Notes: a model not told the origin generated them from the letters alone. A DNA stretch of 64,000 nt from Alistipes sp. (GCA_017624955.1 JAGAMA010000042.1:30318-94317); one strand, 5' to 3'. Positions 595-36,218 are shown, counted from the stretch's first letter. Made by a program: numbers and translations.

Positions 595-2163
595 TTAGTT
601 GAAGAAGATGTAGAGGCCGACCATCACCAGGATCAGGGCGATCCAGAGACCTGCCACCAGCACACCTGTCTTTTGGCGCTCCACCTTGTCGAAGAGCTCC
701 GTGCCCTCCTCCATGGGCGACTTGTCGAACTGCGAAATAAGCATCATCGCAATTACGAGTGCCACCCAGAGGTAGAACGAAAGCATCATGAAGTGGGGCT
801 TGGCAACGCCCTCGGGCCATGCCCAGAGGTAGATCACACCCGTACCGATGCTGAGGAGCGTTCCGAGCGTGAGGGCGAAGTTGGCGGCGCGCTTCGTGGT
901 GCGCTTCCAGAATACACCCAGCACAAAGACGGCAGCCATCGGCGGAGCGATGAAGCTCAGCACCGACTGGAAGACGTTGAAGAGGTTCAGTCCCTTAATC
1001 GAGTCGATGGCCACGCAGATCACCACCGAGAGGATAGCGCCGACCACGGTAACAACGTGTCCCATGCGGATAATCTCCTTGGTCGAGGCCTTGGGGTTGA
1101 ACTTCTTGACGTAGATATCCATCGTGAAGACGGTACTCAGGGCGTTGAGGGCCGAGCCGATCGTGCTCACCAGGGCAGCGGTCAAAACGGCCAATACGAG
1201 ACCCACCATGCCCACGGGGAAGAGGTTCTTGACCATCGTCATATAGGCCTCATCGGGGTTCGCCAACGTGGGGTAGAGGGCGAAGCAGATGATACCCGGC
1301 AGGATGTAGAGGGGCACATCCAAAATCTTCAGCCAACCCGTAAAGTTCGTACCGAGCTGACCTTCGCGGAGGTTCTTGGCAGCCAGGACGGGTTGCACCA
1401 TCGACTGGTCGGTGCACCAGAACCAGATACCCGAAATGGGGTAGCCCAGCACAATCGGCAACCAGGGGAAATCGACATCCGAGTTGGGACGGAACAGCAC
1501 CCAATAGTCGGCCGGTGTGCGGGCCACAAGCTCGTCGATGCCTCCCAATTTGTAGAGTCCGGCCACGACGATCGTACCCGACACGAAGATCAGGAGCAGC
1601 ATCTGATAGACATTGGTATAGGCTACCGCCTTCAGACCACCGAGCATCGTGAAGAAGGCCGAGATGGCCAGCAGAATCAGGGCCGACTGCCACATCGGGA
1701 TATCGAAGACCTGGCGAATCAGCACGCCGCCTGCGAAGAGCGTCAGGGCCAACCACGAGATCAGGATCGTGATCATCGTGTACCAAGCCAGGATGTTGCG
1801 GGTCGATTGACCGAAGCGCTTACCCATGAACTCGGGCAGGGTCGAAACCTTCGAGCCGAGGTAGCGGGGCGCAAAGACGAAGGCCAACATGCAGATAAAG
1901 ATGAAGGCGTACCAGGCGAAGTTACCCGATACGATACCGGTTGTGAAACCGGCCGATGCCGAGGCAATCAGCATCGAGGGGCCGACGTTGGTGCCCCACA
2001 TCGAGAAGCCGATGTGGTACCACCGCAGCGAGTTCTCGGCCAGGAAGAGCGAGCTGCCCTTCTTACGTTGGGTGCTGGCCCAGATGCCGATTGCAAGCAG
2101 AATGACGAAGTATCCGATCAGGATACCCCAGTCAAGCCCTTGCAGGTAGGATGCGTTAATCAT
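595..2163 (-). CDS. sodium:solute symporter (SSF/SGLT-like sugar transporter)
   Basis: 522 aa polytopic membrane protein. The N-terminus GILIGYFVILLAIGIWAS...SLFLAENSL.WY and the overall pattern are typical of the SSF family. Confidence 0.88.
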   Translation of the reverse strand: MINASYLQGLDWGILIGYFVILLAIGIWASTQRKKGSSLFLAENSLRWYHIGFSMWGTNVGPSMLIASASAGFTTGIVSGNFAWYAFIFICMLAFVFAPRYLGSKVSTLPEFMGKRFGQSTRNILAWYTMITILISWLALTLFAGGVLIRQVFDIPMWQSALILLAISAFFTMLGGLKAVAYTNVYQMLLLIFVSGTIVVAGLYKLGGIDELVARTPADYWVLFRPNSDVDFPWLPIVLGYPISGIWFWCTDQSMVQPVLAAKNLREGQLGTNFTGWLKILDVPLYILPGIICFALYPTLANPDEAYMTMVKNLFPVGMVGLVLAVLTAALVSTIGSALNALSTVFTMDIYVKKFNPKASTKEIIRMGHVVTVVGAILSVVICVAIDSIKGLNLFNVFQSVLSFIAPPMAAVFVLGVFWKRTTKRAANFALTLGTLLSIGTGVIYLWAWPEGVAKPHFMMLSFYLWVALVIAMMLISQFDKSPMEEGTELFDKVERQKTGVLVAGLWIALILVMVGLYIFFN

Positions 2164-2202
2164 GGTTAGTTGGTTTTAGATGGTTGTTTGTTGTTGGTTC
2201 GG

Positions 2203-3267
2203 TTAGCGGTAGCGATCGACAATCTTCAGTGCCTCGTCAATCTCTCGTTCGTTTTTGAAGTCCATCGAGAGCAACATGCCTTCGGCACCCACGTTGTCCA
2301 AGAGGGGCTCCAACTCATCGAGCGTTACCCAGTTGGCCTCCACGGATTTGCCTCCCGCCTTGATGCGGCGGTAGAGGTCGTACCATTTGGGATCACCGCC
2401 CTGCGGCTCACCCACACCGGGGGTCCACTGGATGGCGTTCAGCTCCTCAATCTCCAGAAGGGCATCGAGGTGGCGGATGGCGCCCACACCGTCGAGGTGG
2501 TAGAGCGTGTAATCCAATTTTTGGCACTGCTCACGGATGAAGGGCTGCACGAAGCGGCGATAGTCCTCCTCCGAGATCATGATCGAAATGTCGCTCTGGA
2601 GCTTGCTCACGCGGCCCGGGCCCCAAATCGAGAAGTAGCAGAAGGCCATGCCGTCATCCTCGCGGATGATGTCGTAGAGCTCGTCATAGACCTTGAAGTA
2701 GATCTCATTGACCTGCTTTAACTGATGCTCCAACAGGTCGGGGTCGATCATCGTGTCGAGCAGCACGTTGTCCGTGCCACGAATCGCAGCCAGCACATCG
2801 AGACCCTCCATCAGGTCGGGCATGCCGACATAGTAGTTGCCTTGTGCCAACTTCTTCGAGGCCTTCAACAGCTCCTTGTGGAGCTTCCAAGCGGGGTTTT
2901 CGGGATCGAAAACGATATCCTGACCCACCGCATCGGCGGGGTGAATCCAGATCGTATCGGCACCACCCTCCAGCTTACCGCCCAAGATGGCGGCCAGCGA
3001 GCCGGGGCCTAACTGGGTGTTGGCGACGGGGATAATATCGGCCTTGAGCGACGAGTGAGCCACATAGTGGTTCAGCTCCTCGGCACGCCATGCGGGGTCG
3101 AACCAGCGTTGGCTCATATCCTTCGGTGCTGCGGGGGCGGCCACCTCGGCGTGGGGCGTAACCCCCTCCTGCAGGTGCTCCCACATCGTCAGTACACAAC
3201 CCTTATGCTGCCACCAGGCGAGGTAGTTCTGCTTCGATTGCTCCCAATTTTTCTTCCAAGTATTCAT
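2203..3267 (-). CDS. cytoplasmic protein of unknown function; possible URO-D/MtaA-like TIM-barrel fold lacking the Zn ligands (uncertain)
   Basis: 354 aa with no signal peptide. It sits 8 nt downstream of GH31 in the same operon. The C-terminal region LYHLDGVGAIRHLDALLEIEELNAIQWTPG loosely parallels ILHNCGNMGQCTHAMVECGARALHFG of the MtaA-like protein at 9330-10325. The coding call is solid; the fold assignment is by eye only. Confidence 0.8.
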   Translation of the reverse strand: MNTWKKNWEQSKQNYLAWWQHKGCVLTMWEHLQEGVTPHAEVAAPAAPKDMSQRWFDPAWRAEELNHYVAHSSLKADIIPVANTQLGPGSLAAILGGKLEGGADTIWIHPADAVGQDIVFDPENPAWKLHKELLKASKKLAQGNYYVGMPDLMEGLDVLAAIRGTDNVLLDTMIDPDLLEHQLKQVNEIYFKVYDELYDIIREDDGMAFCYFSIWGPGRVSKLQSDISIMISEEDYRRFVQPFIREQCQKLDYTLYHLDGVGAIRHLDALLEIEELNAIQWTPGVGEPQGGDPKWYDLYRRIKAGGKSVEANWVTLDELEPLLDNVGAEGMLLSMDFKNEREIDEALKIVDRYR

Positions 3268-3274
3268 CGTTGCG

Positions 3275-5530
3275 TTAGAATTTCAGTCCGTTAAATGTTG
3301 CGTCAATTACAAGTTTTTCGGCCTTCGTGAGGTCCATCTGGTCGGTATGCTGCGGATCAACATCGGGGTAGAGACTGATCTCGGCACCCTCCTTGACGTA
3401 GAGCGGCATGCGCTCCAGGGGGCACTCCACACCCTTGAGCCAACGGCCACCCTCGAAGCGTTCGCCCGTGAAGAAATCAACCCAGCGGCCCTCAGGGAGA
3501 TAAACATCGCGCTTATCCTCGCTGTTCATCACGGGGGCCACGAGGAACTCCGAGCCGAAGTAGTACTCGTCGTCGATGTGCCATACCTGGCGGTCGTCGG
3601 GGTGGTGCATCAGAAGGGCACGCACCATCGGATAACCCGTCTCGGTCGAGCGGCGGGCCTCCTCCACGATGTAGGGCATCAGGCGGTAGCGCAGCTTCCA
3701 CCAACGCTTCACGAGCGGAGCGATCGCAGGGTAGTGCCACGGCTCACGCTTGAACGACCCGTGGTAGCGCATGTGCGAGGTGAAGACACCGAACTGCGTC
3801 CAGCGCATGTAGACCTTCTCGTCGAGGGGCGAGTTCATGAAGTTGGGCAGCGAGTGGAAGCCCGGCACATCGTGGCTCCAGAAGCCGAAGCCCGAAAGAC
3901 CGAAGTGCAGACCACCCTTCACCGAACCGGCCATGCCGTCCCAGGTCGAGGCCGAGTCACCGCCCCAATGCAGGGGGTAGCGTTGACAGCCTGCCCAGGC
4001 CGAGCGGGCCCAGACGATGCCGTCGCCCGTCACCTCCTTCGTAATCTCGTAGGCGGCCTTCTGATAGAGCAGGGCGTAGAGGTTGTTCAGCTCCTCGGGG
4101 CTCATGGCGTAGTAGTCGGCATCCATGTGGATATTCTCGCCAAAGTCGGTCTTGATGCAGACCACACCCATATCCAACAGCTCCTTCAGGAGTCCCTTGT
4201 ACCAGGCCGTAGCCTTCGGGTAGGTGAAGTCGATCGTGCCGGCATAATCCAGGGTCGAGAAGTTCGAGCCCTCGGCACGCTCCTGCTCCTTCGTCAGGGG
4301 TGCAATGTAGCGGTTCTCCTTCGCCTCGGTGATCTGCTCGGCACCCTCGGCGACATAGGGAAGCTGCCAGAGCGATACGCGGTAGCCATCCTCCTTCAAT
4401 CCCTTGAGGAAGCCCACGGGGTCGGGGAAACGCTCGGGGTTGAACTTCCACTCGCAGAGCCAATCGGTGCGGAACCAACCCGTGTCGAGGTGGATCACAT
4501 CGCAGGGGTACTTCTCACGGCGCAGGCGGTCGCAAATCTCCTGCACCTCGTCGGCCGAGAAGTAGGTCATGCGGCTCATCCAGATACCGAAGCTCCAGAG
4601 CGGGGGCAGCGACGGGAAGCCCGTCAGCGTGCGGTAGTTGTAGAGGATGCGCTCGGGCGACGAACCACCGATGAGGTAGGCATCCACCACGGGGGCTTCG
4701 TTGAGGAACTGCACCGAGCGGGTCGAGTGGTCGGCCAACGAGAGCTTGCAGTAGCGGCTCGTGTGGTAGAAGACACCATACAGGCGGCTCGAGAGGTAGA
4801 AGGGGATATTCTTGTAGGCACGGCGGTTGTTCACGCCCTGACCATCCTGGTTCTTGAGGTAGAAGGTGTGACCCGAGAGGTCCATCTTCGTAAAGCGCTC
4901 TCCCGTACCGGCAAAGCACTCGTCGTGCTTACACTCGAACGAGAGGGTGGCGCGATCCACCTTGCCCTCCGTCTCGCAGTAGGCCAGCGGCAGGGCATCG
5001 TAGCGCGGGGGCGAGAAGTGGTCGTAGGCCGAGAGGCGCACGGGCTTCTCCTTCACACCGTCGGGGTAGATCGTAAGGTCGATCGTGGGCTGCGGAGCAG
5101 GTTGCAGGTCGCTCCAGAAGTCGATCACGGCCTCCTTCAGGTTCAGCTCGCCACGGAGCTTTCCGTTTGCATCGTGGAACTGCCACACATCGTCGGCCAA
5201 GGTGGCCGTGAGGGGCAGCTTTTTGACCGAGGGGGCATACGCGAGCATCTCGCTTTCGTCACTCGGCGCTTGGCCTTCGGTCGAGAGGAAGAGGCGCACG
5301 ATCTCCTCGCCATAGGCGCGCAGGATGAGCGTGTGGCTGACCTGCTCACACTGCGTGTCGGCTGCCATGTCGGCCGCCTTGAGCTGCTTCTGGAAGGGCA
5401 CCGTGATATGGATGTCGCCCTCGACGGCCTCGACCGAGGTGGGCTTGTAGGCTTTCCAAAGGGCCTCGTCACGCTGTAGGTCGGTGTCGAAGTCCAGGAA
5501 ATCAAAAAGGTGGTAATTGGTCTGTTTCAC
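3275..5530 (-). CDS. glycoside hydrolase family 31 (alpha-xylosidase/alpha-glucosidase, YicI-like), cytoplasmic
   Basis: 751 aa with no signal peptide. GH31 signature regions are present: IHLDTGWF, VCIKTDFGE (nucleophile region) and HWGGDSASTWDG. Confidence 0.9.
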   Translation of the reverse strand: MKQTNYHLFDFLDFDTDLQRDEALWKAYKPTSVEAVEGDIHITVPFQKQLKAADMAADTQCEQVSHTLILRAYGEEIVRLFLSTEGQAPSDESEMLAYAPSVKKLPLTATLADDVWQFHDANGKLRGELNLKEAVIDFWSDLQPAPQPTIDLTIYPDGVKEKPVRLSAYDHFSPPRYDALPLAYCETEGKVDRATLSFECKHDECFAGTGERFTKMDLSGHTFYLKNQDGQGVNNRRAYKNIPFYLSSRLYGVFYHTSRYCKLSLADHSTRSVQFLNEAPVVDAYLIGGSSPERILYNYRTLTGFPSLPPLWSFGIWMSRMTYFSADEVQEICDRLRREKYPCDVIHLDTGWFRTDWLCEWKFNPERFPDPVGFLKGLKEDGYRVSLWQLPYVAEGAEQITEAKENRYIAPLTKEQERAEGSNFSTLDYAGTIDFTYPKATAWYKGLLKELLDMGVVCIKTDFGENIHMDADYYAMSPEELNNLYALLYQKAAYEITKEVTGDGIVWARSAWAGCQRYPLHWGGDSASTWDGMAGSVKGGLHFGLSGFGFWSHDVPGFHSLPNFMNSPLDEKVYMRWTQFGVFTSHMRYHGSFKREPWHYPAIAPLVKRWWKLRYRLMPYIVEEARRSTETGYPMVRALLMHHPDDRQVWHIDDEYYFGSEFLVAPVMNSEDKRDVYLPEGRWVDFFTGERFEGGRWLKGVECPLERMPLYVKEGAEISLYPDVDPQHTDQMDLTKAEKLVIDATFNGLKF

Positions 5531-5561
5531 AGTTATTTGGGTTTAGTTATTTGGCTTATGC

Positions 5562-7385
5562 TTAATATTTTACATCGGGCAGCGCCAACGCGCGGCGATT
5601 CATCTGCGGCGAGTTCTCGCCCTCGAAGCGAATCTTCGGGCCCGGGTTGTTGAAGCCGAACGAATCCTTCACCTCGCACCAGTTGTTGCGGATCGTGTAG
5701 CCGTCCGTCGCCGCATCGAGGTAGATGCAGAAGGCGCGGTGGTTCGTGGCGTAGGGCGCTTCGGTGGGGGCGTAGATGATGTTATTTTCGATGAGCGAGT
5801 TGGGCTGATTCGAGAGGGTGTAGATGCCTCCCGTGTCGTAGAGCTGACGGGCATAGTTGCGCACCGTGTTGTGGGTGATGCGGTTGCGCTGCATGCCGGT
5901 CTTGTGCTTCGTCCAGCCCCAGCCTACGGCAATGGCCGAGTAATTGACCCCATCGACTAAGTTGCGCGTGATCGTCACGTCGTGCACATAGCCGCAGCCG
6001 ATGCCGACTGCGCCCCAATCCTCGCGCGTGCAGTTCGTGATGCGGTTATCGGCAAGCGTAAGGTAGGAGCAGAAGCCCTCCTTGGAGCCGATTGCGTTGT
6101 AGGGGATATGCACCTCGGTCGGGCCCTCGCCAAACGAACCGGCCAGGAGTGCCGTGCCGCCGATGTTGCGGAAGGTGCAGGCGGTGACGGCCGAGTGGTG
6201 GACATTCGTAGCCAAATCCAATCCCGTCGAGCCGAGGGCGACAAACGAGCACCCGTCGAAGGCGATGTGGCGGGCATTGACGACCGATACGGCCGCCTCG
6301 GGACGGAGGAGCCATGCCTGATTTTCGAGGTTCTCATCCCACGCAAAGCCCGGCTTGTCGTAGAGCTTGTAGCCGTCGATAAAGGGGAATCCGCCCTGCA
6401 GGGTCACATGCCCCGCCTCCGAGGGGCGATTCCAGGCCGTGTCGGCAAAGGTGATGCCGCGGAAAGTGATGTACTCCACCGACTTTTTCGGTGCGCCCTC
6501 GATCGTCATGAGGCGCTCCAGGTGGGGGATATAGACCGTCGTTTTGTTCGGGTCGATCGCAGGGTCTTTGGCGAAGAGGTAGATTTTGCCCGTAGCCCCC
6601 TCCTGCCACCACTCGTAGTTCTCGTTGAGCAGCTCGCGCGCGTTCATGAGCATATAGGAGGAGTTGCCCCGCTCCTCGCCAATGACGGGCTGCGGCCAGG
6701 GGTGCTCAAACTCCAGGTGGCTCTCGGGTTCGAGGAACGACACTACGGCCTTCTCGCCCTCGTAGCGCATCTCCTTGACACGCAGGATGGCCGTGGCCCA
6801 ACGCTGATGTACCATCATCTCCAACCCCTCGGCTTTCTCCAGTCCCTTGATCGTGGGCTTGGGAATGGTGATGGTGCGGTTTTGCGTATCGAAGGCGATG
6901 ATGCGCTGCATCTTCCCCTCGCCAAACTCATTGGCGCGGAAGAGCTTGCCGCCAAAGCCCCAGAGCTGGCGCGTGAGGATCGGACGACCGTGCTGTTTCG
7001 GGGCATCGGTCACCCAGCAGTTGCCCTCCTTCGTCCAATTTTTCAGGGGCATGCTGCCGACGATAAAGACCTTGCCTTCAGCACCTTCGTCGGCCATGAG
7101 TGTCGTGGGCGAAAGCGCCGTGCCGCTATCCTCGGGACGGAGGTAGATCGTGCGATCGAGCGTGTAACGCCCCGCCGCGAAGCGAATCTCGATGCCGCCT
7201 GCGGTGCGCTCATCAGCTGTGCGTCGCCACTCGCGTGCCATCTTCAGGGCGGCATGGGGCGTGCGTAGGGGGGCGTTTTTCGTACCCTCGGCACGGTCAT
7301 CGCCCGTGGGCGAAACATGGATCGTACCCGCCAGGAGCAGGGTCGGCATACAAAGGCCTGCAAGGAGCATCAGGAATCGTTTCAT
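5562..7385 (-). CDS. secreted right-handed parallel beta-helix protein (probable glycosidase or lyase; family not assignable by eye)
   Basis: 607 aa. Signal peptide MKRFLMLLAGLCMPTLLLAG. The N-terminal IHVSPTGDD...G....PL motif and repeated N/G-rich turns (e.g. ITNCT, ITRNLVDG, ITHNTVRN, IENNIIY) are typical of beta-helix repeats. Confidence 0.8.
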   Translation of the reverse strand: MKRFLMLLAGLCMPTLLLAGTIHVSPTGDDRAEGTKNAPLRTPHAALKMAREWRRTADERTAGGIEIRFAAGRYTLDRTIYLRPEDSGTALSPTTLMADEGAEGKVFIVGSMPLKNWTKEGNCWVTDAPKQHGRPILTRQLWGFGGKLFRANEFGEGKMQRIIAFDTQNRTITIPKPTIKGLEKAEGLEMMVHQRWATAILRVKEMRYEGEKAVVSFLEPESHLEFEHPWPQPVIGEERGNSSYMLMNARELLNENYEWWQEGATGKIYLFAKDPAIDPNKTTVYIPHLERLMTIEGAPKKSVEYITFRGITFADTAWNRPSEAGHVTLQGGFPFIDGYKLYDKPGFAWDENLENQAWLLRPEAAVSVVNARHIAFDGCSFVALGSTGLDLATNVHHSAVTACTFRNIGGTALLAGSFGEGPTEVHIPYNAIGSKEGFCSYLTLADNRITNCTREDWGAVGIGCGYVHDVTITRNLVDGVNYSAIAVGWGWTKHKTGMQRNRITHNTVRNYARQLYDTGGIYTLSNQPNSLIENNIIYAPTEAPYATNHRAFCIYLDAATDGYTIRNNWCEVKDSFGFNNPGPKIRFEGENSPQMNRRALALPDVKY

Positions 7386-7408
7386 AGGAAAGTGTTTGAT
7401 AAATCAAA

Positions 7409-7416
7409 CAAAGATA
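7409..7416 (-). promoter_or_regulatory. Bacteroidota -7 box (TATCTTTG) for the beta-helix/GH31 operon
   Basis: Exact TAnnTTTG match 24 nt upstream of ATG 7385, preceded by an AT-rich TTAA-repeat tract. Confidence 0.5.
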
Positions 7417-7420
7417 CGAA

Positions 7421-7460
7421 AATGAATTAAGAATTAAAAATTAAAATTAAGAATTAAAGG
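7421..7460 (-). repeat. AT-rich TTAA-repeat tract (reverse orientation), part of the promoter cassette
   Basis: aatgaattaagaattaaaaattaaaattaagaattaaagg is the reverse complement of the ttaatttttaattcttaatt-type tracts at 8547-8584, 12210-12248 and 26241-26274. Confidence 0.8.
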
Positions 7461-7550
7461 GAGCTAAGGGGGACTAAAGAAAATTAAGGGGGGGGCTAAC
7501 GCACCCCCCCCCTCCTTAGCAACCTTTAGCAACCTTTAGCAACCTTTAAT
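7455..7550. repeat. imperfect long hairpin built from CTAAAGG-type units around a G8/C9 core
   Basis: The left arm carries gctaaggg, actaaag and attaagg. The centre is G8-ctaacgca-C9. The right arm carries ccttagc and three copies of cctttagc. Related tracts lie at 11963-11992 and 46318-46366. Confidence 0.75.
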
Positions 7551-7586
7551 CCACAACCGCCCACAGTACCACCAACCGTCCACTAC

Positions 7587-7674
7587 CTTCCCACCCTCTC
7601 TCTCTTCTCCTGTCACAAGTGTCACAGGTGTCACAGGTGTCACAAGTGTCACGCCCTGTGACACTGTGACACTG
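7587..7674. repeat. polypyrimidine + (GTCAC)n-GCCC-(GTGAC)n module, left copy of an inverted pair
   Basis: A 28-nt exact match (ctcctgtcacaagtgtcacaggtgtcac) to the reverse complement of 8177-8268. It is itself a hairpin centred on gccc. Confidence 0.85.
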
Positions 7675-8045
7675 CGGCACGAGCAGAAAGTACAACCATT
7701 GAACTTTTGCATGCCTTACGGCTCACACCCACGATCGGTCGTGGGCAAGCACTGCTGCCTGGTCGCATCGTGCTGCATGTGCTTATATAAGAACTAATAT
7801 ATATAAATATTATTTATAATTATTAGGTGTGTATAGGCTTCGCTATCGACTCACCCTATTAGACTTACGGCAAGCACGGTTGCCTTGGGTAACTACGCGA
7901 CAAGTCGGTGTCGTAGTGCGTAGGCTGTCGTGTTGTGCCGTATGTAGTGTGTAGGGTAGCGTGTTGTGTGGTGGGTGAAACCACGGCCACGCTATCGTAC
8001 AATTATTGAACCTGCTTGTGGAGCGGTTTGGGTAGCTCCGAGGGA

Positions 8046-8110
8046 GTAACCAAGTAACATAGTAACATTGTAACAGGGGGTGTACCCGTGTTACTGTGTT
8101 ACGATGTTAC
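8046..8110. repeat. hairpin built from GTAACA units
   Basis: gtaaccaagtaacatagtaacattgtaaca - gggggtgtacccg - tgttactgtgttacgatgttac. Confidence 0.75.
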
Positions 8111-8176
8111 GAAAGAGGACTGGGCCCACTGGGGCTACTGAGGCCACTGGGCCAACTGAATAATTCTTAATTCCAG

Positions 8177-8268
8177 GGTGTCACACTGTCACACTGTCAC
8201 AGGGCGTGACACCTGTGACACTTGTGACAGGAGAGGAAAGAGGAGAGAGCGAAGAGAAAAGAAAAGAG
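8177..8268. repeat. (GTCAC)n-GGGC-(GTGAC)n + polypurine module, right (inverted) copy
   Basis: Its reverse complement aligns with 7587-7674. Two 9-nt units present in the left copy are missing here. Confidence 0.85.
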
Positions 8269-8325
8269 TTGAACGTTATGAGCAACGACCTCATTAGCAC
8301 CACCAGCGGAGCTGTAGCGACTAAG

Positions 8326-8363
8326 CCTCCCTTATCAAAGGGAGGTTTGGAGGGATTGTCTAT
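8326..8363 (+). repeat. S2 module, short form
   Basis: cctcccttatcaaagggaggtttggagggattgtctat. It has the same ends as the long form at 25917-26031 but lacks the ~80-nt interior. Confidence 0.8.
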
Positions 8364-8406
8364 ATCTCTTTCTTAAATAATTACTAATTACGCATACTTC
8401 TCGTCT

Positions 8407-8519
8407 CAGCCTTTTGAGGCCACCGCAGGTGGCTTTGAAAACGAGTAGCCACCGCCAAGCTCGCTTGGAGGGTGGCTGCACGTTTACAAAACAATTGCCC
8501 ATAGGCAACCAAAAGGCTG
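8407..8519 (+). repeat. S1 four-helix structured module, copy 1
   Basis: The closing stem cagcctttt/aaaaggctg encloses three hairpins. It is homologous to 26077-26194, with the structure conserved despite sequence divergence. Confidence 0.8.
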
Positions 8520-8546
8520 CAAAGGCCAAACGCCACGCCCACCCCA

Positions 8547-8584
8547 CAATTCTTAATTTTTAATTTTTAATTCTTAATTTTTCT
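8547..8584 (+). repeat. AT-rich TTAA-repeat tract, part of the promoter cassette
   Basis: caattcttaatttttaatttttaattcttaattttt. Confidence 0.8.
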
Positions 8585-8587
8585 TTT

Positions 8588-8595
8588 TATATTTG
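8588..8595 (+). promoter_or_regulatory. -7 box (TATATTTG) for the corrinoid operon
   Basis: Exact TAnnTTTG match 42 nt upstream of ATG 8637, preceded by a TTAA-repeat tract. Confidence 0.5.
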
Positions 8596-8636
8596 TATGA
8601 TTAAACCGCTAACAACAACAATAAACCAATAACACT

Positions 8637-9308
8637 ATGAACGAAATTCTTGAAAAACTCTTTACCTGCATCGAATTTGGAAAGATCAACACCGCATCGC
8701 CCTATCCGCCGCAGATGCGCGGCCAGGAGGGTGCCATGGAGCTCACGAAGCAGGCACTCGATGCCGGCATCGCCCCCTCGGAGATTATGGATTCGGCGCT
8801 GATTCCCGCCATGACGCGCGTGGGTCAGAAGTTTACCGAAGGTCAGGTCTTCGTGCCGCAGATGTTGCTCTCGGCCAAGGCAATGAATGCCGCCCTGACC
8901 CATATCAAGCCCTTCTTCCAGTCGGGTGAGGTGCAGCGCAAGGGTACCTTCATTATCGGTACGGTGTTCGGTGACCTGCACGACATCGGCAAGAACCTCG
9001 TCTGCATGATGGTCGAGGGTGCCGGTTGGGAGGTGGTGGACCTCGGCGTAGATGCTTCGGCCGAGAAGTTCCTCGCAGCCCTCGAAGAGCACCCGGGTGC
9101 CCACGTTGGTCTTTCGGCCCTGCTGACGACGACGATGACCAACATGAAGACCATCATCGACAAGGTGCACGAGACGCACCCCGAGGTGAAGTTTATCGTG
9201 GGTGGCGCTCCCGTGTCGGCCGAGTTTGCCAAGGAGATCGGTGCTGACGGTTACGCCGCCGATCCGCAGGACGACATCAAGATTCTGGAGAGCTTCCTGA
9301 ACGCCTAA
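8637..9308 (+). CDS. corrinoid (cobalamin-binding) methyl-carrier protein, MtaC/MtbC/MetH-B12-domain-like
   Basis: 223 aa. Helical cap region ALDAGIAPSEIMDSALIPAMTRVGQKFTEGQVFVPQMLLSAKAM. DxHxxG motif GDLHDIGKN (D113-G118, nt 8973-8990). SxL (SALLTTT) and GG (IVGGAPV) motifs of the base-off/His-on B12-binding fold are also present. Confidence 0.9.
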   Translation: MNEILEKLFTCIEFGKINTASPYPPQMRGQEGAMELTKQALDAGIAPSEIMDSALIPAMTRVGQKFTEGQVFVPQMLLSAKAMNAALTHIKPFFQSGEVQRKGTFIIGTVFGDLHDIGKNLVCMMVEGAGWEVVDLGVDASAEKFLAALEEHPGAHVGLSALLTTTMTNMKTIIDKVHETHPEVKFIVGGAPVSAEFAKEIGADGYAADPQDDIKILESFLNA

Positions 9309-9329
9309 CGACTTAATATTGAACACACC

Positions 9330-10325
9330 ATGAAAAAGTGGATCGATGCGCTCATGATGAGCGAAAAGCGTGTCGCTGTGCCGATTATGACCCACCCGGG
9401 CATCGAGTACATCGGACGAACGGTGCGCGAGGCGGTGACCGACGGTGAGGTACACGCCGCTGCCATTGAGGCGCTGGCCAAGCGTTATCCCTCGGCTGCC
9501 TCGACGGTCATCATGGACCTCACGGTCGAGGCCGAGGCCTTTGGTGCCAAGATTCTGATTCCCGAGGAGGAGATTCCGACCGTCACGGAGCGCCTGGTGT
9601 CGGATGCCGCATCGGTGGAGGCGCTGCAAGTGCCTACGCTGGAGGCGGGTCGTGTGCCCGAGTACCTCAAAGCCAACCGCCTGGCCGTGGAGAAGATCAC
9701 CGACCGCCCCGTCCTGGCAGGTTGCATCGGCCCCTTCTCGTTAGCAGGTCGCCTGTACGACATGAGCGAGATTATGGTGGCCATCTACATCGAGCCCGAT
9801 GTGATCATGGCCCTCCTGGATAAGTGTACAGCCTTCCTCATCGACTACTGCAAGGCGCTGAAAGCGACGGGTGTTGCAGGTGTTGTGATGGCCGAGCCGG
9901 CTGCAGGTTTGCTCTCGGACGAGGACCACATGGTCTATGCTACGCCCTATGTGAAGCAGATCGTGGATGCCGTGCAGGACGATGATTTCACGGTCATTCT
10001 GCACAACTGCGGCAACATGGGTCAATGTACCCACGCCATGGTCGAGTGCGGTGCGCGTGCGCTCCACTTCGGCAACCTGGTCGATATTCCGCAAGCCCTC
10101 CAGGAGGTGCCCGAGGAGATGCTCGTGATGGGCAACCTCGACCCCGTGAATGTGATTCAGCAGGCTACGCCCGAGGCGGTGGAGGCCGCTACGACCGACC
10201 TGCTGGAGAAGACCGCCGGGGCGAAAAACTTCGTCATCTCGACGGGTTGCGACCTGCCCCCTGCTGTACCCGAGGCCAACATCGAGGCCTTCTTTGCGGC
10301 TGTGGATAAGTACAATGCACGATAG
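9330..10325 (+). CDS. URO-D family methyltransferase, MtaA/CmuA-like (methylcobamide-dependent), with putative Zn ligands
   Basis: 331 aa. Family-typical segments AEAFGA, MAEPAAG, ILHNCGN and ISTGCDLP. His225-x-Cys227 and Cys307 match the spacing of the His-x-Cys...Cys zinc site known from MtaA. Confidence 0.85.
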   Translation: MKKWIDALMMSEKRVAVPIMTHPGIEYIGRTVREAVTDGEVHAAAIEALAKRYPSAASTVIMDLTVEAEAFGAKILIPEEEIPTVTERLVSDAASVEALQVPTLEAGRVPEYLKANRLAVEKITDRPVLAGCIGPFSLAGRLYDMSEIMVAIYIEPDVIMALLDKCTAFLIDYCKALKATGVAGVVMAEPAAGLLSDEDHMVYATPYVKQIVDAVQDDDFTVILHNCGNMGQCTHAMVECGARALHFGNLVDIPQALQEVPEEMLVMGNLDPVNVIQQATPEAVEAATTDLLEKTAGAKNFVISTGCDLPPAVPEANIEAFFAAVDKYNAR

Positions 10326-11031
10326 GGTGGAACGCGCATTTCATACCTACCGTTTTCCCTATGGCGAGGTCTTGCCCTCGCTCGATGAGCTTGCTCGGTA
10401 TCTTCACATGGAGGAGGATACCGAGCATCCTGCTTATTGCTATATGAAAGAGCGCCTTGCGGGGCTTACATCAAGTGATTTGGAGGCTGTGGGAGGCTAT
10501 GCGATCGGCACGATCGAGGGGCTCGATTTGCAGGGCGGAACGCTTACGGTCGAGGGCACGACTTTCGAGGTTGGAGCGCAGGTTTGCGGCTACCTGAAGG
10601 AGGCCACCGAGGCGGCACTTTTCCTCTGCACGGCAGGTGCTCTGTTCTCGGACGAGGCGCATGCGCTGAACGCGCAGGGGGAGTTCCTGGAGGCCTACAT
10701 CATCGATGCCATCGGCTCACTCACGGTGGAGCGTGCGATGGATAAAATCCATAAGGCGCTGGAGGTGGAGCAGGCTGCGCGCGGGATGAAGATCACGAAC
10801 CGCTACAGCCCGGGCTATTGTAATTGGCCGCTCAAAGACCAGCGACCGTTGTTTGCCTTCGTGGGCGAGAACCCCACGGGCATCGCCCTGAGTGAATCGT
10901 GCCTCATGCACCCGATAAAATCGGTCAGTGGCGTGATCGGCATCGGCACCACGGCGCGCCGCCGCGCCTACGGCTGTGTCATCTGCCAAAACAAAACCTG
11001 CATCTACCGCCGCCTGGTGCAGAAGGGGTAA
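10315..11031 (+). CDS. methionine-synthase (MetH) activation-domain-like protein; putative corrinoid reductive reactivation factor
   Basis: The ATG at 10315 overlaps the upstream stop by 11 nt; the track ORF begins at TTG 10294. RYSPGYCNWP resembles the RxxxGY SAM-binding motif of the MetH activation domain. The C-terminal CxxCxxxxC cluster is CVICQNKTC. Confidence 0.75.
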   Translation: MHDRVERAFHTYRFPYGEVLPSLDELARYLHMEEDTEHPAYCYMKERLAGLTSSDLEAVGGYAIGTIEGLDLQGGTLTVEGTTFEVGAQVCGYLKEATEAALFLCTAGALFSDEAHALNAQGEFLEAYIIDAIGSLTVERAMDKIHKALEVEQAARGMKITNRYSPGYCNWPLKDQRPLFAFVGENPTGIALSESCLMHPIKSVSGVIGIGTTARRRAYGCVICQNKTCIYRRLVQKG

Positions 11032-11131: not shown

Positions 11132-11219
11132 GGAGAGGTGGGTGAGTGGCTGAAACCACCGGTTTGCTAAACCGACGTACCTGATTAGGGTACCACGAGT
11201 TCGAATCTCGTCCTCTCCG
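11132..11219 (+). tRNA. tRNA-Ser (anticodon GCU), type II with long variable arm
   Basis: Folded by hand. Acceptor GGAGAGG/CCTCTCC; 3-bp D stem with a GG loop; anticodon loop TTGCTAA. Variable arm GTACC-tgattag-GGTAC. T arm ACGAG-TTCGAAT-CTCGT. Discriminator G; no encoded CCA. Confidence 0.9.
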
Positions 11220-11246
11220 CAAAAGGGCAAACGCCCCGGCGAACGA

Positions 11247-11270
11247 CCTCTGCTTTTGCAGAGGTTTTTT
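11247..11270 (+). terminator. Rho-independent terminator after tRNA-Ser
   Basis: CCTCTGC-tttt-GCAGAGG followed by TTTTTT. Confidence 0.75.
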
Positions 11271-11369
11271 GTTTTTAGGCGGGGATGTTTGCGAGTTTAT
11301 TCGTGTAACTTCCCGCCTAAAAACAAAAACACTCCCGTTGGGAGTAGTTCGCGTAGGGCGTTTGGCTTT

Positions 11370-11509
11370 TGCAAGGATGCCTCCGGCAGGAAAGAGAAAG
11401 GGCTCGCTTTAGCGAGGCCAATTTCGTCCTCTCCACCCTTCGATAAAGGGCATCCTTGCAAAAAGCAACCCTTTTGCGGAGAAGGACATAGACAATCCCC
11501 CTAAATCCC
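11370..11509 (+). repeat. M3 module, tandem copy 1 (~140 nt)
   Basis: tgcaaggatgcctccggcagg...gggcatccttgca...cttttgcggagaaggacatagacaatccc. Nearly identical to 11690-11819; I count two substitutions and one A-position shift. Confidence 0.85.
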
Positions 11510-11689
11510 CCTTTGATAAGGGGGACTTCAAACTTGCGGACCCCGCGGGAGCGCAGAGAAAGGCGTAGCGAAGCAGGCTTGCCTGCGCAGCAGCCAATCT
11601 CGTCCGAAGAGTCCGCTTCAACAAACCGTTGGCGGAGAGAACTCCTACAATCCACCCCAACCCCTCCTTTGATAAGGAGGGGCTTGAGA

Positions 11690-11819
11690 TGCAAGGATGC
11701 CTCCGGCAGGAAAGAGAAAGGGCTCGCTTTAGCGAGGCCAATTTCGTCCTCTCCGCCCTTCGACAAAGGGCATCCTTGCAAAAGCAAACCCTTTTGCGGA
11801 GAAGGACATAGACAATCCC
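11690..11819 (+). repeat. M3 module, tandem copy 2
   Basis: See 11370-11509. Confidence 0.85.
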
Positions 11820-11925
11820 TCCAAACCTCCCTTTACGGCGATAAATCGCCGTGACTGCTTGCGCGCCTCGGTAAAGTCTGCAAGCAGCCTCTACACTCGG
11901 CTGTTGCAGCAGTTGATAAGGAGGG
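11807..11925 (-). repeat. S2 module, long form (reverse orientation)
   Basis: Its reverse complement aligns end to end with 25917-26031. A short form in the same orientation lies at 11497-11525. Confidence 0.8.
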
Positions 11926-12004
11926 GCTTGCAATGCGGACCCCGCGGGAGCGCAGAGAAAGGCAACTAAAGGTTGCTAAGGGTTGCTAAAGGTCATCGGG
12001 CTTT

Positions 12005-12137: not shown

Positions 12138-12201
12138 GTGTCACCGCCTGTCACTATGTGTCACACCTGTCACGCCCTGTGACACGGTGACAGCGTGACA
12201 C
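12138..12201. repeat. (GTCAC)n-GCCC-(GTGAC)n hairpin, third copy of the family
   Basis: gtgtcaccgcctgtcactatgtgtcacacctgtcac-gccc-tgtgacacggtgacagcgtgacac, flanked by C/T-rich runs as in 7587-7674. Confidence 0.8.
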
Positions 12202-12209
12202 CCCCTCCC

Positions 12210-12248
12210 TTAATTTTTAATTCATAATTTTTAATTCTTAATTCTTTT
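12210..12248 (+). repeat. AT-rich TTAA-repeat tract, part of the promoter cassette
   Basis: ttaatttttaattcataatttttaattcttaattctttt. Confidence 0.8.
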
Positions 12249-12251
12249 CGC

Positions 12252-12259
12252 TATCTTTG
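12252..12259 (+). promoter_or_regulatory. -7 box (TATCTTTG) for the pectin operon
   Basis: Exact TAnnTTTG match 24 nt upstream of ATG 12283, preceded by a TTAA-repeat tract. The flanks are nearly identical to the 7409-7416 cassette. Confidence 0.5.
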
Positions 12260-12282
12260 TCTTGATTATACCTAAACCTACT

Positions 12283-16625: not shown

Positions 16626-18455
16626 ATGCGTAAATTACTCTATTTTCTGGCGGCTGTCTGCCTATGGACGGGTTGTTCGGACGAATACGATGATTCGGCC
16701 ATCAAGGGCGACATCGACGACCTGAAGGATAAAGTTGCCGCCCTGGAGCAGCAGATTGCTTCGCTCAAGCAGGAGGCCACGAAGATCAACAACGACATTG
16801 CCGCCCTGAAGGATATTGCCGACGGCATCGCCATTACGAAGGTGACGGAGAATGCCGATGGCGGTTATACGGTAACCTTCTCCAACGGCAAGAGCTACAC
16901 GATTGCCAACGGCCAGAAGGGTGATCAGGGTCCGCAGGGTCCCCAGGGCCCCGAGGGTGCTGCCTGTACGCCGATGATGCGCATCGATTCGGAGGGTTAT
17001 TGGCAGGTAAGCTACGACGGCGGTACGACCTGGGAGTATCCCGGTGGCGAGAAGATCTCGGCTTTGGGCCAGACGGGTGCCACGGGTGACCAGGGTGCCC
17101 AGGGTCAGACGGGTGCTACGCCCCAGATCAGTGTCGATTCGGAGGGCTACTGGACGGTCAGCTACGATGGCGGTAAGACTTTCGAGCGCATGAAGGATGC
17201 TGCAGGTAACGAGATCAAGGCGGTTGTTTCGGAGGGTACGGGCAACGTCAGCTACAAATCGGTCTTCGAGTCGGTAAGCTACTCGGCCGAGAACTCGACC
17301 CTGCAGGTGGTGCTGGCAGGCACGACCGAGGTGCTGGAGATTCCCGTAGGTGGTGCTGCGTTGGCACAGCTCTACGCAGGTGAGAACCCCGTGGAGGGTG
17401 TTCAGACCTTTGCTGCAGGCGAGACGAAGAGCTACACGGTGAAGGCCCCCACGGCCGATATGGTTAAGGTGGTCGGCTATCCCGATGGTTGGACGGTTGC
17501 GCTGAAGGAGATGACCCTCGATGTAACGGCTCCCGCGGCTCAAAGCCGCGCTACGGCCGACTCGGCTACGGATGTTTCGCTCTTGGTTGTGATGAAGAAC
17601 GGCCTTGCCACGGTACTGCGCATGCAGGTTGCTGTGGACGGTACGGCTGCACCTGCCGTGCCGCTGGCTACGCCCGTGGTGACGCTTACGCCCGCCTCGG
17701 TAACGGCCGTTACGGAGCAGGCTGTGGTAGCTGCTTGGGAGGCTGTTGCCAATGCCGCCTCGTATAAGGTTTCGTTCAATGGCGCTGCTGCTACGACCGT
17801 AACGGAGGCTGCCTATACGATTGCCGCTGCGGATGTGAAGGCCCTTGCCAAGGGCGAGTATAAGATTTCGGTGGTGGCTGTTCCGGCTGATGCCGTGGCT
17901 TACACCGAGTCGGCTGCCGGTGAGGCTACGCTGACCGTAACGGAGGCCACTACGCCCCCGTCGGGTGAGGTAAAGACCTACACGCTGATTGCTGCGGAGA
18001 TGCACTCGGCCGGTACGACGGGTATCCCGGGCGGTTCGTCGGGTGTTGTCGATATGGGTGATACCTTCACGACCTGGACTTGGAATTCGTTTAGCTTCGA
18101 GTCGCGTTGCGCCTTGACCACGACGGGTCAGGCCGATGGTACGAAGGTTCCTGTCCTTTATTTCTACAAGACCTCGAAGGTGGCTGCCGGTACGCTGATT
18201 CGCAATACGACGGCTTTGGGCGAGATTCAGAAGATTACCATTACGCTGGTTGATAACGGCGCGAAGAAGGGTGAACTCTTCTCGATGGTAGAGACCGTCA
18301 ATGGCGCTGAGCAAACCGTACAGTCGGCAAATCATACGCAGTCGTCGTGTGAGCATGTTTATACCTTCTCGGCCGGCAACAACGGTAAGTTTGTCTTCTC
18401 GAATCCTTCGGATCAGGATTGCAAGGTGCTTTCGTTTGTGATCGAGTACAAATAA
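16626..18455 (+). CDS. surface lipoprotein with N-terminal coiled coil, two collagen-like G-X-Y blocks, an Fn3-like middle and an unknown C-terminal domain
   Basis: Lipobox CLWTGC. Heptad-like DDLKDKVAALEQQIASLKQEATKINNDIAALKD. G-X-Y blocks GQKGDQGPQGPQGPEGA (nt 16911-16958 approx) and GQTGATGDQGAQGQTGA. The N-terminal module is homologous to that of the adjacent PL1 protein. Confidence 0.8.
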   Translation: MRKLLYFLAAVCLWTGCSDEYDDSAIKGDIDDLKDKVAALEQQIASLKQEATKINNDIAALKDIADGIAITKVTENADGGYTVTFSNGKSYTIANGQKGDQGPQGPQGPEGAACTPMMRIDSEGYWQVSYDGGTTWEYPGGEKISALGQTGATGDQGAQGQTGATPQISVDSEGYWTVSYDGGKTFERMKDAAGNEIKAVVSEGTGNVSYKSVFESVSYSAENSTLQVVLAGTTEVLEIPVGGAALAQLYAGENPVEGVQTFAAGETKSYTVKAPTADMVKVVGYPDGWTVALKEMTLDVTAPAAQSRATADSATDVSLLVVMKNGLATVLRMQVAVDGTAAPAVPLATPVVTLTPASVTAVTEQAVVAAWEAVANAASYKVSFNGAAATTVTEAAYTIAAADVKALAKGEYKISVVAVPADAVAYTESAAGEATLTVTEATTPPSGEVKTYTLIAAEMHSAGTTGIPGGSSGVVDMGDTFTTWTWNSFSFESRCALTTTGQADGTKVPVLYFYKTSKVAAGTLIRNTTALGEIQKITITLVDNGAKKGELFSMVETVNGAEQTVQSANHTQSSCEHVYTFSAGNNGKFVFSNPSDQDCKVLSFVIEYK

Positions 18456-18470
18456 TAGTGTTCGTACACC

Positions 18471-25832: not shown

Positions 25833-25916
25833 GTATTGGTGTTCATCTGTCTTTTTGATTTCAACGGAAATCCACAACGATTATTAGCATTACCCAAGGA
25901 GCTTTAGCGACTAAGT

Positions 25917-26031
25917 CCCCCTTATCAACTGCTGCAACAGCCGAGTGCAGAGGTCGCTTGCGAACCTATGCCGAGGCGCGCAAGCAGTCACGGCAAATTG
26001 CCGTAAAGGGGGATTTAGGGGGATTGTCTAT
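25917..26031 (+). repeat. S2 module, long form
   Basis: cccccttatcaa...three internal hairpins...gtaaagggggatttagggggattgtctat. Confidence 0.8.
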
Positions 26032-26076
26032 ATTTTTTTTATTTACAAGGAAAATTTACCTTAATCACTCCGCTTT

Positions 26077-26194
26077 CAGCCTTTTGTGCCACTGAAGGTG
26101 GCATTGAAAATGATTTACTCCGCCTCTGAGCTTGCTCGGAAAGGCGAAGTAAATTGTTTTCAAATCAGTTGCCAAGCAGGCAACCAAAAGGCTG
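26077..26194 (+). repeat. S1 four-helix structured module, copy 2
   Basis: See 8407-8519. Confidence 0.8.
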
Positions 26195-26240
26195 CGCCAT
26201 GAAGCTCTGCGATGTGCCCTTTTCACACTTTTGTAGGCAT

Positions 26241-29665: not shown

Positions 29666-30297
29666 TGTCGGCGAATCGAATGCGCGGTTTTTGGTGTGCG
29701 GTGTTGGCCCTTTTGCTTTGCACGGCGTGCAGCAACACTCGCTCCGATGAGGAGCAGGCGATGATCGGGGCTGTTGAGGAGTTGGTTGAGCGCTATCCGT
29801 CAGCCACCTTGCAGGATATCTATAAGAGCTGTTTCCAGGACCATTTCGGTGTGGCACATTTGTTGGCCGATCGCGAGCGCGTGAAGGGTTATATCGAGTA
29901 TGAACTCTCGACGGCCGATTCGCTCGTCGGGATTTATTATGAGCCGTGTGGCTGGCGAGGTAACTTTGTGCGTGTCAATCTTTTGGCTGTGCATGACGGG
30001 CATCTTACGGCCGATGAGCTGACCGATGCCTTTATGGCAAGTGCCGCCTATTCAAAAAACGAGGTGAGCGAGGAGTGGCTCGCGGAGTGGCAGACGATCC
30101 TCCGACTGATCAAAGAGGAGGGGCTGGATCGGGCGTTGGTCGGTTTTAGTGCCGACTCGGCAGAGCTTGCCCGACTGCTCGGCGAAGGAAAGTATGTGAT
30201 GCACCACAGCGCCTCGTTCCGCGATGCGTACCATCCGCACTATCGCATCATTCATCGCTCGGTATTTGAGGAGCAGATCCTGCCACGACTGAAATAA
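29665..30297 (+). CDS. hypothetical lipoprotein
   Basis: The start overlaps the tsaB stop (TAATG). Lipobox ALLLCTAC. I recognise no family. Confidence 0.65.
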   Translation: MSANRMRGFWCAVLALLLCTACSNTRSDEEQAMIGAVEELVERYPSATLQDIYKSCFQDHFGVAHLLADRERVKGYIEYELSTADSLVGIYYEPCGWRGNFVRVNLLAVHDGHLTADELTDAFMASAAYSKNEVSEEWLAEWQTILRLIKEEGLDRALVGFSADSAELARLLGEGKYVMHHSASFRDAYHPHYRIIHRSVFEEQILPRLK

Positions 30298-34993: not shown

Positions 34994-35014
34994 TAACTCA
35001 AACTTTTTTAAGAG

Positions 35015-36187: not shown

Positions 36188-36218
36188 AATCCTACATTCT
36201 AATTCTGCATTTGTAACA

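Follow-up and report, generated by a model that had tools for sequence, protein, structure and literature searches.

Corrinoid-dependent methyltransferase systems are modular. In the O-demethylases of acetogens and Desulfitobacterium and in the Cdm chloromethane system, a variable methyltransferase I (MT I) of the UroD superfamily is combined with a corrinoid protein of cap and Rossmann domains, a second methyltransferase and a repair factor, and the acetogen systems use many paralogous MT I enzymes with common downstream parts (PMC13222342). Here we describe a gene cluster of the same modularity in a 64,000-nucleotide stretch of a metagenome-assembled Alistipes sp. genome (GCA_017624955.1 JAGAMA010000042.1:30318-94317; hereafter the window, with positions counted from its first letter). 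Its core encodes a corrinoid protein, an MtaA-like methyltransferase and a protein resembling the reactivation domain of MetH. Across genera of the Bacteroidales, this core travels with the GH141, GH31, DUF_2203 (our label for the 2203-3267 protein) and symporter genes to its left, not with CE8 or GH28 genes. We propose, with confidence and doubt about evenly balanced, that the module is a corrinoid-dependent O-demethylase that would remove a methyl ether from an imported glycoside, with a disaccharide of rhamnogalacturonan II (RG-II) as the candidate substrate.

The locus differs from the acetogen and Cdm systems in its likely substrates, which would be carbohydrate methyl ethers in glycan loci with sugar transporters and glycosidases rather than methoxy-aromatics. 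Its proposed acceptor-side methyltransferase (MT2) is an MtaA-like zinc enzyme, whereas theirs is a pterin-binding tetrahydrofolate methyltransferase, and its repair factor in the window is of the MetH-reactivation type, whereas theirs is the ATP-dependent RACo/RamA, a type seen here in some sister cassettes. Finally, its proposed substrate-specific methyltransferase (MT1) belongs to a clade outside Pfam URO-D. With methanogen MtaABC, and also with MtbA and MtsA, the locus shares an MtaC-like corrinoid protein and an MtaA-like URO-D enzyme with aligned zinc ligands. However, neither MtaB nor RamA is found among the 47 large open reading frames (ORFs) of the window that were scanned with Pfam, and scores lie far under the MtaA, MtbA and MtaC equivalog cut-offs. 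MetH and the split Thermotoga TM0268/TM0269 pair have in common with it a B12 cap and Rossmann domain with DxHxxG and a reactivation domain, here stand-alone, with RxxxGY and the TM0269 fold. Unlike MetH, the window has no methyl-tetrahydrofolate (pterin) or homocysteine domain, and the methyl donor would be a sugar ether. CmuA of chloromethane-utilising Methylobacterium is a methyltransferase-corrinoid fusion, as are most Prevotella and Phocaeicola orthologues of DUF_2203; in the window, by contrast, the MT1 and corrinoid parts are separate genes on opposite strands, and both substrate and MT1 clade differ.

A further relative in function is the P450 6-O-methyl-D-galactose demethylase of marine porphyran-degrading Bacteroidetes, an O2-dependent monooxygenase that releases formaldehyde and is encoded in a glycan utilisation locus. 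Both it and the present module would strip a sugar methyl ether ahead of glycan catabolism, but the route proposed here is an O2-independent corrinoid transfer. Full-text literature searches returned no report of corrinoid-dependent sugar demethylation, nor of a functional link of these genes with GH141 or GH31. Relative to known corrinoid three-component methyltransferases, the MT1 family and the substrate class would be new and the repair partner unusual, given the substrate and chemistry that we infer.

An earlier interpretation of the window, made from the DNA alone (the sequence-only reading), had proposed the core as a methyl-transfer cassette within a pectin locus, and its three ORFs are present at the positions it gave (8637-9308, 9330-10325 and 10315-11031). 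The core genes and the MT1 candidate are as follows.

8637-9308, plus strand: corrinoid (B12) carrier with helical cap and Rossmann domain, base-off/His-on, 223 aa (PF02607, PF02310).
9330-10325, plus strand: MtaA-like URO-D methyltransferase with a His-x-Cys...Cys zinc motif, 331 aa, proposed MT2 (methyl-Co(III) to acceptor; PF01208).
10315-11031, plus strand: stand-alone MetH-reactivation-domain protein (ACT), TM0269-like, with five invariant cysteines, proposed repair factor for oxidised corrinoid (PF02965).
2203-3267, minus strand: DUF_2203, 354 aa, cytoplasmic, proposed substrate-specific MT1 (methyl ether to Co(I); fold, profile comparison, fusions).

GenBank entries MBO5351565-69, which are consecutive, match exactly the GH31, GH141, corrinoid, URO-D and 'hypothetical' proteins of the window. 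For comparison, one genome per GTDB species was scanned for relatives of the MtaA-like protein; at least 561 stretches held relatives, and 80 loci were kept (loci are labelled L0xx, proteins P0xxx, and URO-D paralogue clusters c7, c11 and c28). The conserved gene set of the loci was defined by tblastn with the window proteins and by all-against-all clustering of locus ORFs. Neighbour counts given out of 25 refer to the non-Alistipes loci that carry DUF_2203 (25 of 64 non-Alistipes loci; hereafter MT1 loci) and to a neighbourhood of 10 kb.

The family matches of the three cassette proteins lie far beyond chance. The 223-aa protein matches PF02310 (B12-binding, 9.8e-26) and PF02607 (B12-binding_2, 9.1e-19), and it combines a cap and a Rossmann domain with the DxHxxG, SxL and GG motifs that define the corrinoid proteins of three-component methyltransferase systems. 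DxHxxG is present as D113-L-H-D-I-G118 (nt 8973-8990), and the segments GDLHDIGKNL, SALLTTTM and GGAP are kept across 65 orthologues. NCBIfam models match as well (TIGR02370, 6.5e-51; an MtgC-type model, 8.6e-58), with neither match reaching its cut-off.

The 331-aa protein matches PF01208 (URO-D) at 1.5e-61, and its closest PDB sequence is M. mazei MtaA (4ay7, 1e-16). Residues H225, C227 and C307 align with the LHICGN and GCG motifs of 4ay7 and are kept in at least 95% of 73 orthologues; the protein combines the URO-D TIM barrel with the His-x-Cys...Cys zinc site of the MtaA/MtbA class. It reaches none of the equivalog cut-offs of the curated MtaA/MtbA models, scoring 125.8 bits against 400 for NF040654 (MtaA), 138 against 600 for NF041608 (MtbA) and 145 against 235 for TIGR01463, the models being of MtaA/CmuA and MtbA type.

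The ACT gene begins with an ATG at 10315 and overlaps the MtaA-like gene, whose stop ends at 10325, by 11 nt; the two genes adjoin in 70 of the 80 loci. ACT scores 28.7 bits with PF02965 (Met_synt_B12; cut-off 25) in a match that spans only profile positions 185-253, the C-terminal part, and it matches TM0269, the stand-alone Thermotoga protein (PDB 1j6r), at 1.3e-5 by sequence. In a comparison of its AlphaFold2 model (pLDDT 89) with the PDB, 1j6r aligns with TM 0.70/0.83, and MetH reactivation domains make up 19 of the 19 matches at E<1e-3. The protein thus has both the gathering score and the fold of the PF02965 class, together with the RxxxGY motif (RYSPGY, R163-Y168, nt 10801-10818), for which AdoMet binding is predicted. 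Across 25 diverse homologues, the most distant at 49% identity, no variation is seen in C105, NRYSPGYC169NW and YGC221xxC224xNxxC229, and the terminal CVICQNKTC lies at nt 10975-11001. TM0269 differs in that the position of C169, the only one of the five cysteines visible in the sequence alignment, is occupied by Gly. The conserved cysteines of ACT are possibly metal or Fe-S ligands.

The sequence-only reading had derived these families from motifs, namely the full B12 signature of the 223-aa protein, the zinc-type His225-x-Cys227 and Cys307 of a URO-D/MtaA-like 331-aa protein, and the 11-nt overlap, RYSPGY and terminal CxxCxxxxC of a MetH-reactivation protein, and the profile and structure comparisons above bear it out on each. 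A RamA/RACo-type ATP-dependent activase was not detected by Pfam among the 47 window proteins; a RACo-type gene (Fer2+RACo_middle+RACo_C_ter) was confined to the sister cassettes, namely L025, L047 and L059, plus L055 with a shorter member of 349 aa. These RACo-bearing cassettes also contain the MetH-type reactivation protein, and GH2 and AraC regulator genes stand alongside.

The core itself lacks an obvious substrate-specific enzyme, and the protein at 2203-3267 had been put forward as a candidate MT1. Fold, profile homology and fusions now support this suggestion. DUF_2203 has no match in Pfam (including PF01208), NCBIfam or, by phmmer, the PDB. Its AlphaFold2 model (pLDDT 90, pTM 0.89), compared with the PDB by Foldseek, finds MtaA first (4ay8, E 8.8e-9, TM 0.64/0.66), followed by UroD structures. 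A deep DUF_2203 family profile aligns by hhalign with c7, a Pfam-recognisable URO-D paralogue of the sister cassettes, at 96.6% probability (E 4.8e-10). The hhalign comparison with the MtaA-like family is insignificant (1.4% with shallow and 1.2% with deep profiles), and DUF_2203 and the MtaA-like protein are therefore not close paralogues. Conserved motifs of DUF_2203 are YH257LD259G, FC210YF and D336F; His257 aligns with the zinc-ligand His position, with Asp259 in place of Cys. The family is large; at E<=1e-3, its matches number 2082 representative sequences of clusters built at 50% identity.

The weightiest evidence comes from gene fusions, which tie DUF_2203 to methyl transfer. Most Prevotella and Phocaeicola orthologues (72-76% identical) are fused to a B12 cap and Rossmann domain in proteins of ~600 aa. 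In the intact 995-aa protein P0513 (L086), DUF_2203 is joined to a complete homocysteine S-methyltransferase of the MetH type, a B12 cap and a B12 domain, with no pterin domain. The 975-aa P0563 (L087, 886-3813) consists of a pterin-binding methyltransferase, a B12 cap, a B12 domain and a DUF_2203-family domain. DUF_2203 thus recurs in fusions with a corrinoid module and with one or other of the two classical acceptor-side modules, which argues for a donor-side methyltransferase. We propose that DUF_2203 is the substrate-specific MT1, which from its modelled fold would be a highly divergent MtaA/UroD-fold barrel. We note that the chimera of DUF_2203, homocysteine methyltransferase and B12 module is split by a frameshift in L081 (3863-6648), where the MtaA-like and reactivation-like genes remain adjacent, and carries an in-frame stop in L082 (2643-4469). 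P0563 is neighboured by a DUF2284 protein, an AraC regulator and another GH31.

Synteny places these genes in a wider unit. Around DUF_2203 in the MT1 loci, a sodium:solute symporter gene is found in 25/25, GH31 in 22/25 (the other three lie at contig ends), GH141 in 13/25, CE8 in 1/25 and GH28 in 0/25. The order GH31, DUF_2203, symporter, corrinoid protein, MtaA-like protein, ACT, GH141 on a single strand is seen in Dysgonomonas, in Paludibacter sp. (L018) and in two metagenome-assembled genomes of unclassified Bacteroidota/Bacteroides (L016, L017). In Tannerella and in most of the remaining Paludibacter loci the order is kept but GH141 is missing within 10 kb, and in Prevotella, Phocaeicola vulgatus and Alistipes the module genes are reshuffled yet clustered. 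On the flanks of the module, Dysgonomonas and Paludibacter have GH78-like rhamnosidases. In the P. vulgatus locus, GH141, GH31, a DUF_2203-B12 fusion, symporter, MtaA-like and reactivation-like genes occur with an adjoining 360-aa ORF, and the P. vulgatus orthologues are found on >1000 metagenomic contigs. [quoted passage not shown] The span of 8637-11031 chosen by the sequence-only reading does cover the invariant core of three genes, but it is too narrow for the functional module, which by conserved synteny comprises seven genes at about 595-11031. Outside Alistipes, the co-occurrence with CE8 and GH28 that this reading had suggested examining is not seen, with counts of 1/25 and 0/25.

Sister cassettes retain the corrinoid, MtaA-like and reactivation-like genes and have DUF_2203, symporter and GH31 exchanged for the URO-D paralogues c7, c11 and c28, which are accompanied by RhaT or major facilitator superfamily (MFS) transporters and RhaM mutarotase, with GH29, GH2, GH105/88, GH120-like or GH89 in the flanks. 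Six Paludibacter loci carry two donor sets, GH31-DUF_2203-symporter and c7-RhaM-RhaT, before one core. MT1s and transporters vary from one cassette type to another, but every type includes the MtaA-like protein, at 59-68% identity. Such swapping of donor sets around one core follows the logic of the acetogen systems (PMC13222342) and favours an acceptor-side role, as MT2, for the MtaA-like protein. A protein that stays constant while transporters, glycosidases and second URO-D-type proteins change is what would be expected of an acceptor-side rather than a substrate-side enzyme, and we propose this role for it.

The strictly conserved His/Cys/Cys site of the MtaA-like protein suggests a thiol acceptor. 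The acceptor is probably a thiol, with homocysteine as first candidate, and the fusion P0513 makes homocysteine more plausible; as its domain content shows, homocysteine would serve as acceptor in at least one related architecture, while P0563 has a pterin module instead. Coenzyme M biosynthesis is not expected in Bacteroidales.

The remaining features of the module are listed below.

595-2163, minus strand: sodium:solute symporter (SSF), proposed inner-membrane importer of the methylated glycoside (PF00474 1e-55, TIGR00813).
3275-5530, minus strand: GH31 alpha-xylosidase-type glycosidase, cytoplasmic (PF01055, PF21365, PF13802).
5562-7385, minus strand: GH141 with signal peptide, BT1002 homologue (PF21231 GH141_M, 8.6e-52).
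7386-8636, no strand: divergent promoter region with a ~1.1-kb repeat-rich insertion (-7 type motifs, inverted repeats).

The window GH141 matches PDB 5mqp (BT_1002) over residues 15-595 at 3.9e-135. This full-length homology comes with a conserved pair of Asp residues, as in GH141 enzymes of the BT1002 type, if these two are, as we take them to be, the catalytic D523 and D564 under an assumed +5 offset in the PDB chain numbering. The GH31 protein matches the NCBIfam alpha-xylosidase model PRK10658 at 5e-143, short of the cut-off, and in the PDB 5f7c (E=0, 1265 bits) and YicI (~1e-109). 5f7c, reportedly deposited as an alpha-glucosidase, is probably BT_0339. The N-terminus of GH31, MKQTNYHLFDFLDFD, has no hydrophobic leader and no signal peptide, and DUF_2203 likewise has no signal peptide.

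From the observed families, folds, synteny, fusions and swapping of MT1s and transporters, we infer every catalytic step, the substrate and the acceptor of the following pathway. Secreted GH141 would release a methylated alpha-xyloside from pectin, the prime candidate being 2-O-methyl-D-xylose-alpha1,3-L-fucose of RG-II chain A, and the SSF symporter would import it. In the cytoplasm, DUF_2203 would offer the O-methyl group to the corrinoid protein in its Co(I) state, so that methyl-Co(III) forms and the sugar hydroxyl is freed, and GH31 alpha-xylosidase would split the xyloside before or after demethylation. The Zn-type MtaA-like enzyme would then move the methyl group from Co(III) to the acceptor, probably a thiol with homocysteine leading. 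Cofactor oxidised to Co(II) may be restored by the MetH-reactivation-like protein through reductive methylation with S-adenosylmethionine.

The substrate is probably 2-O-methyl-xylosyl-fucose of RG-II, since BT1002 (GH141) frees 2-O-Me-Xyl-alpha1,3-Fuc from chain A (PMC10154630). The signal peptide on GH141 and the lack of one on GH31 and DUF_2203 fit import and cytoplasmic processing of a disaccharide. The idea of O-methyl sugars as substrates, raised by the sequence-only reading, fits the conserved synteny with GH141 and GH31. A sister cassette with RhaT and RhaM, at times beside GH29 fucosidases, would fit 2-O-methyl-fucose. It is possible, if on balance doubtful, that Bacteroidales of the gut and the environment hold modular, O2-independent, B12-dependent sugar-ether demethylases, in which interchangeable MT1s (DUF_2203 or URO-D paralogues) with their own transporters and glycosidases would feed a shared core, the window's module acting on 2-O-methyl-xylosyl-fucose and the RhaT/RhaM sister on 2-O-methyl-fucose, with the methyl group passing to homocysteine and on to methionine.

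B. thetaiotaomicron, the only organism with a functionally characterised RG-II pathway, appears to carry the same module at BT_0338-BT_0343, for which literature annotation gives the same gene set of GH141, GH31 alpha-xylosidase and corrinoid/methyltransferase genes: BT_0338 is a GH141 (PMC8264420), BT_0339 an alpha-xylosidase (PMC10434189), and BT_0340/0342/0343 are listed as 'Mta' corrinoid proteins (PMC8941943). In the literature searched, BT_0338-0343 are listed as a B12-binding system only, with no function, substrate or tie to the glycosidase neighbours. Methyl ethers of sugars block glycosidases and sugar catabolism, and 2-O-methyl-xylosyl-fucose is the one RG-II linkage that B. theta leaves uncleaved; a corrinoid demethylase, if our reading is true, would be the missing step of RG-II breakdown. 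It would also give a function to one of the few function-less B12-dependent systems of Bacteroides, the 'Mta' system of B. theta (PMC8941943), and link vitamin B12 availability to fibre use. In terms of enzymes, it would add a previously undefined family of MT1s, comprising about 2000 clusters at 50% identity, and a MetH-type repair domain acting in a catabolic methyltransferase system.

Several points weigh against this reading. Methionine as a stoichiometric methyl sink would surpass biosynthetic demand. In L081, a homocysteine methyltransferase domain (frameshifted there) and an MtaA-like gene stand side by side, and the acceptor of the MtaA-like protein therefore need not be homocysteine. 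GH141 is not within 10 kb in 12/25 MT1 loci. The loci L083-L085, from ENA metagenome assemblies, have a GH141-GH31-(DUF_2203-B12 fusion)-SSF-BNR_4 operon, and the 10 kb around it hold neither an MtaA-like nor an ACT gene, which implies that MT2 is encoded elsewhere or dispensable in them. Most directly, B. theta cleaves 20/21 RG-II linkages and discards two methylated products, the wild type secreting 2-O-Me-Xyl-alpha1,3-Fuc and 2-O-Me-Fuc when grown on RG-II (bioRxiv 10.64898/2026.03.13.711244). If B. theta has the module and yet leaves these products, then either the genes are not expressed under the conditions used or the module acts on some methylated glycoside other than these.

The latter would leave the machinery as proposed and change only its target to another methylated alpha-glycoside, such as a xyloside or glucoside of a plant, algal or microbial glycan or a glycoside with a methoxylated aglycone. 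We regard this alternative as rather unlikely. The methylated RG-II products left in the medium by B. theta, apparently with BT_0338-0343 in its genome, speak for it, as do the xylanase and endo-fucanase activities that the literature also records for the GH141 family, the reported alpha-glucosidase label of 5f7c, and the GH89, GH120-like and GH2 genes beside sister cassettes, which point to a broad substrate range of the system. On the other hand, the one GH141 fucosidase characterised so far releases precisely such a compound, a methylated alpha-xyloside, in keeping with the pairing of an alpha-xylosidase-type GH31 with a methyltransferase; the module is flanked by GH78-like rhamnosidases in Dysgonomonas and Paludibacter, abuts pectin genes in Alistipes, and may correspond to the RG-II-induced BVU_2642-2648 cluster of P. 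vulgatus.

An improbable alternative reverses the roles, with the MtaA-like protein as substrate MT1, in the manner of the zinc-containing MT I enzymes of the UroD superfamily that O-demethylate aromatics, and DUF_2203 serving otherwise, or takes the cassette as a split methionine-synthase variant for biosynthesis or methylamine use. Bacterial MT II enzymes are taken to be of the pterin-binding type. A reversal would agree with the placing of bacterial MT I enzymes in the UroD superfamily, bacterial MT II enzymes having been analysed alongside AcsE and MetH (PMC13222342). A non-catabolic or methylamine role is suggested by database names ('Mta', 'corrinoid protein of di/trimethylamine methyltransferase'), and the corrinoid protein scores best, below the cut-off, with the glycine-betaine MtgC model. 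However, it is the MtaA-like protein that stays constant across cassettes with varying transporters, glycosidases and second URO-D-type proteins, and it is DUF_2203, not the MtaA-like protein, that is fused to corrinoid, homocysteine-methyltransferase and pterin-methyltransferase modules. Among the 47 large window ORFs, Pfam found no match to the MtaB, MttB or pterin-binding methyltransferase families. Methylamine use was rejected, as no MttB-type protein is among these ORFs and the context is one of carbohydrates.

Methanol, whose release from pectin by CE8 the sequence-only reading had pointed out and whose activation and onward transfer by way of the corrinoid protein would resemble methanogen MtaABC, is a highly improbable substrate: the window has two CE8 genes, the cassette is MtaA/MtaC-like and a CE8 gene sits inside the core of L023, but CE8 and GH28 are next to absent from the MT1 loci while symporter and GH31 are almost constant there, no MtaB family is found among the 47 ORFs, the conserved sugar symporter and cytoplasmic glycosidase would be superfluous, and the MtaC and MtaA equivalog cut-offs are missed. 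The gene in L023 (Dysgonomonas), for a CE8-type pectin methylesterase of 544 aa, lies between the corrinoid and MtaA-like genes and is the sole CE8 among the 25 MT1 loci.

The module forms two tight divergent operons, 7385->595 (gaps of 31, 7 and 39 nt) and 8637->11031, each preceded by a Bacteroidetes -7 type motif (TAnnTTTG): TATATTTG at 8588 on the plus strand and CAAAGATA at 7409 on the minus strand. Between the GH141 and corrinoid genes lies a non-coding insertion of ~1.1 kb (7436-8547) with nested inverted repeats, 7402-7446 / 8558-8602 and the TGTCACA-rich arms 7597-7680 / 8178-8252. In the closest relative, L001, just 135 nt separate these two genes, matching only the two edges. Fragments of the insertion recur at 11485-11834, 12138-12272 and 25875-26195, suggesting a repeat family resembling miniature inverted-repeat transposable elements. 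With Rfam at gathering thresholds, only a tRNA was matched in the whole window, and no cobalamin riboswitch was detected. A tRNA-Ser(GCT) at 11132-11220 directly follows the cassette, and ~0.7 kb of repeats at 11256-11963 contain two directly repeated units of 145 nt, which are 94% identical to each other, as well as a perfect repeat of 30 nt. With the repeats at 7436-8547, the cassette is flanked on both sides by repeat-rich non-coding DNA. Identity with the Phocaeicola orthologues is 70-76% for GH31, DUF_2203 and the symporter (1265 bits for GH31 and 5f7c), which we judge to be above expectation between Rikenellaceae and Bacteroidaceae/Prevotellaceae and which suggests lateral spread of the module.

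The pectin setting described by the sequence-only reading is real, with GH28, two CE8, GH105/88 and a hexuronate catabolism operon, and both CE8 genes match PF01095 at the coordinates it gave (22860-24491, with an additional GDSL domain, and 41589-42596). To the right of the cassette, the pectin genes (S9-like, DUF4861, GH28) keep their synteny within Alistipes only. The hexuronate operon at 33581-41567 is complete, encoding UxaC, a KdgK-type PfkB kinase, KDPG aldolase, an MFS transporter, a UxaB-type mannitol dehydrogenase and UxaA altronate dehydratase; a CE8 and a GH43 follow it, in keeping with ordinary pectin catabolism. Two DUF4988 proteins (16626-20885) adjoin GH28. Large ORFs with no Pfam match lie at 20904-22856 (650 aa), 30439-32148 (569 aa), 32430-33389 (319 aa) and 29665-30297 (210 aa).

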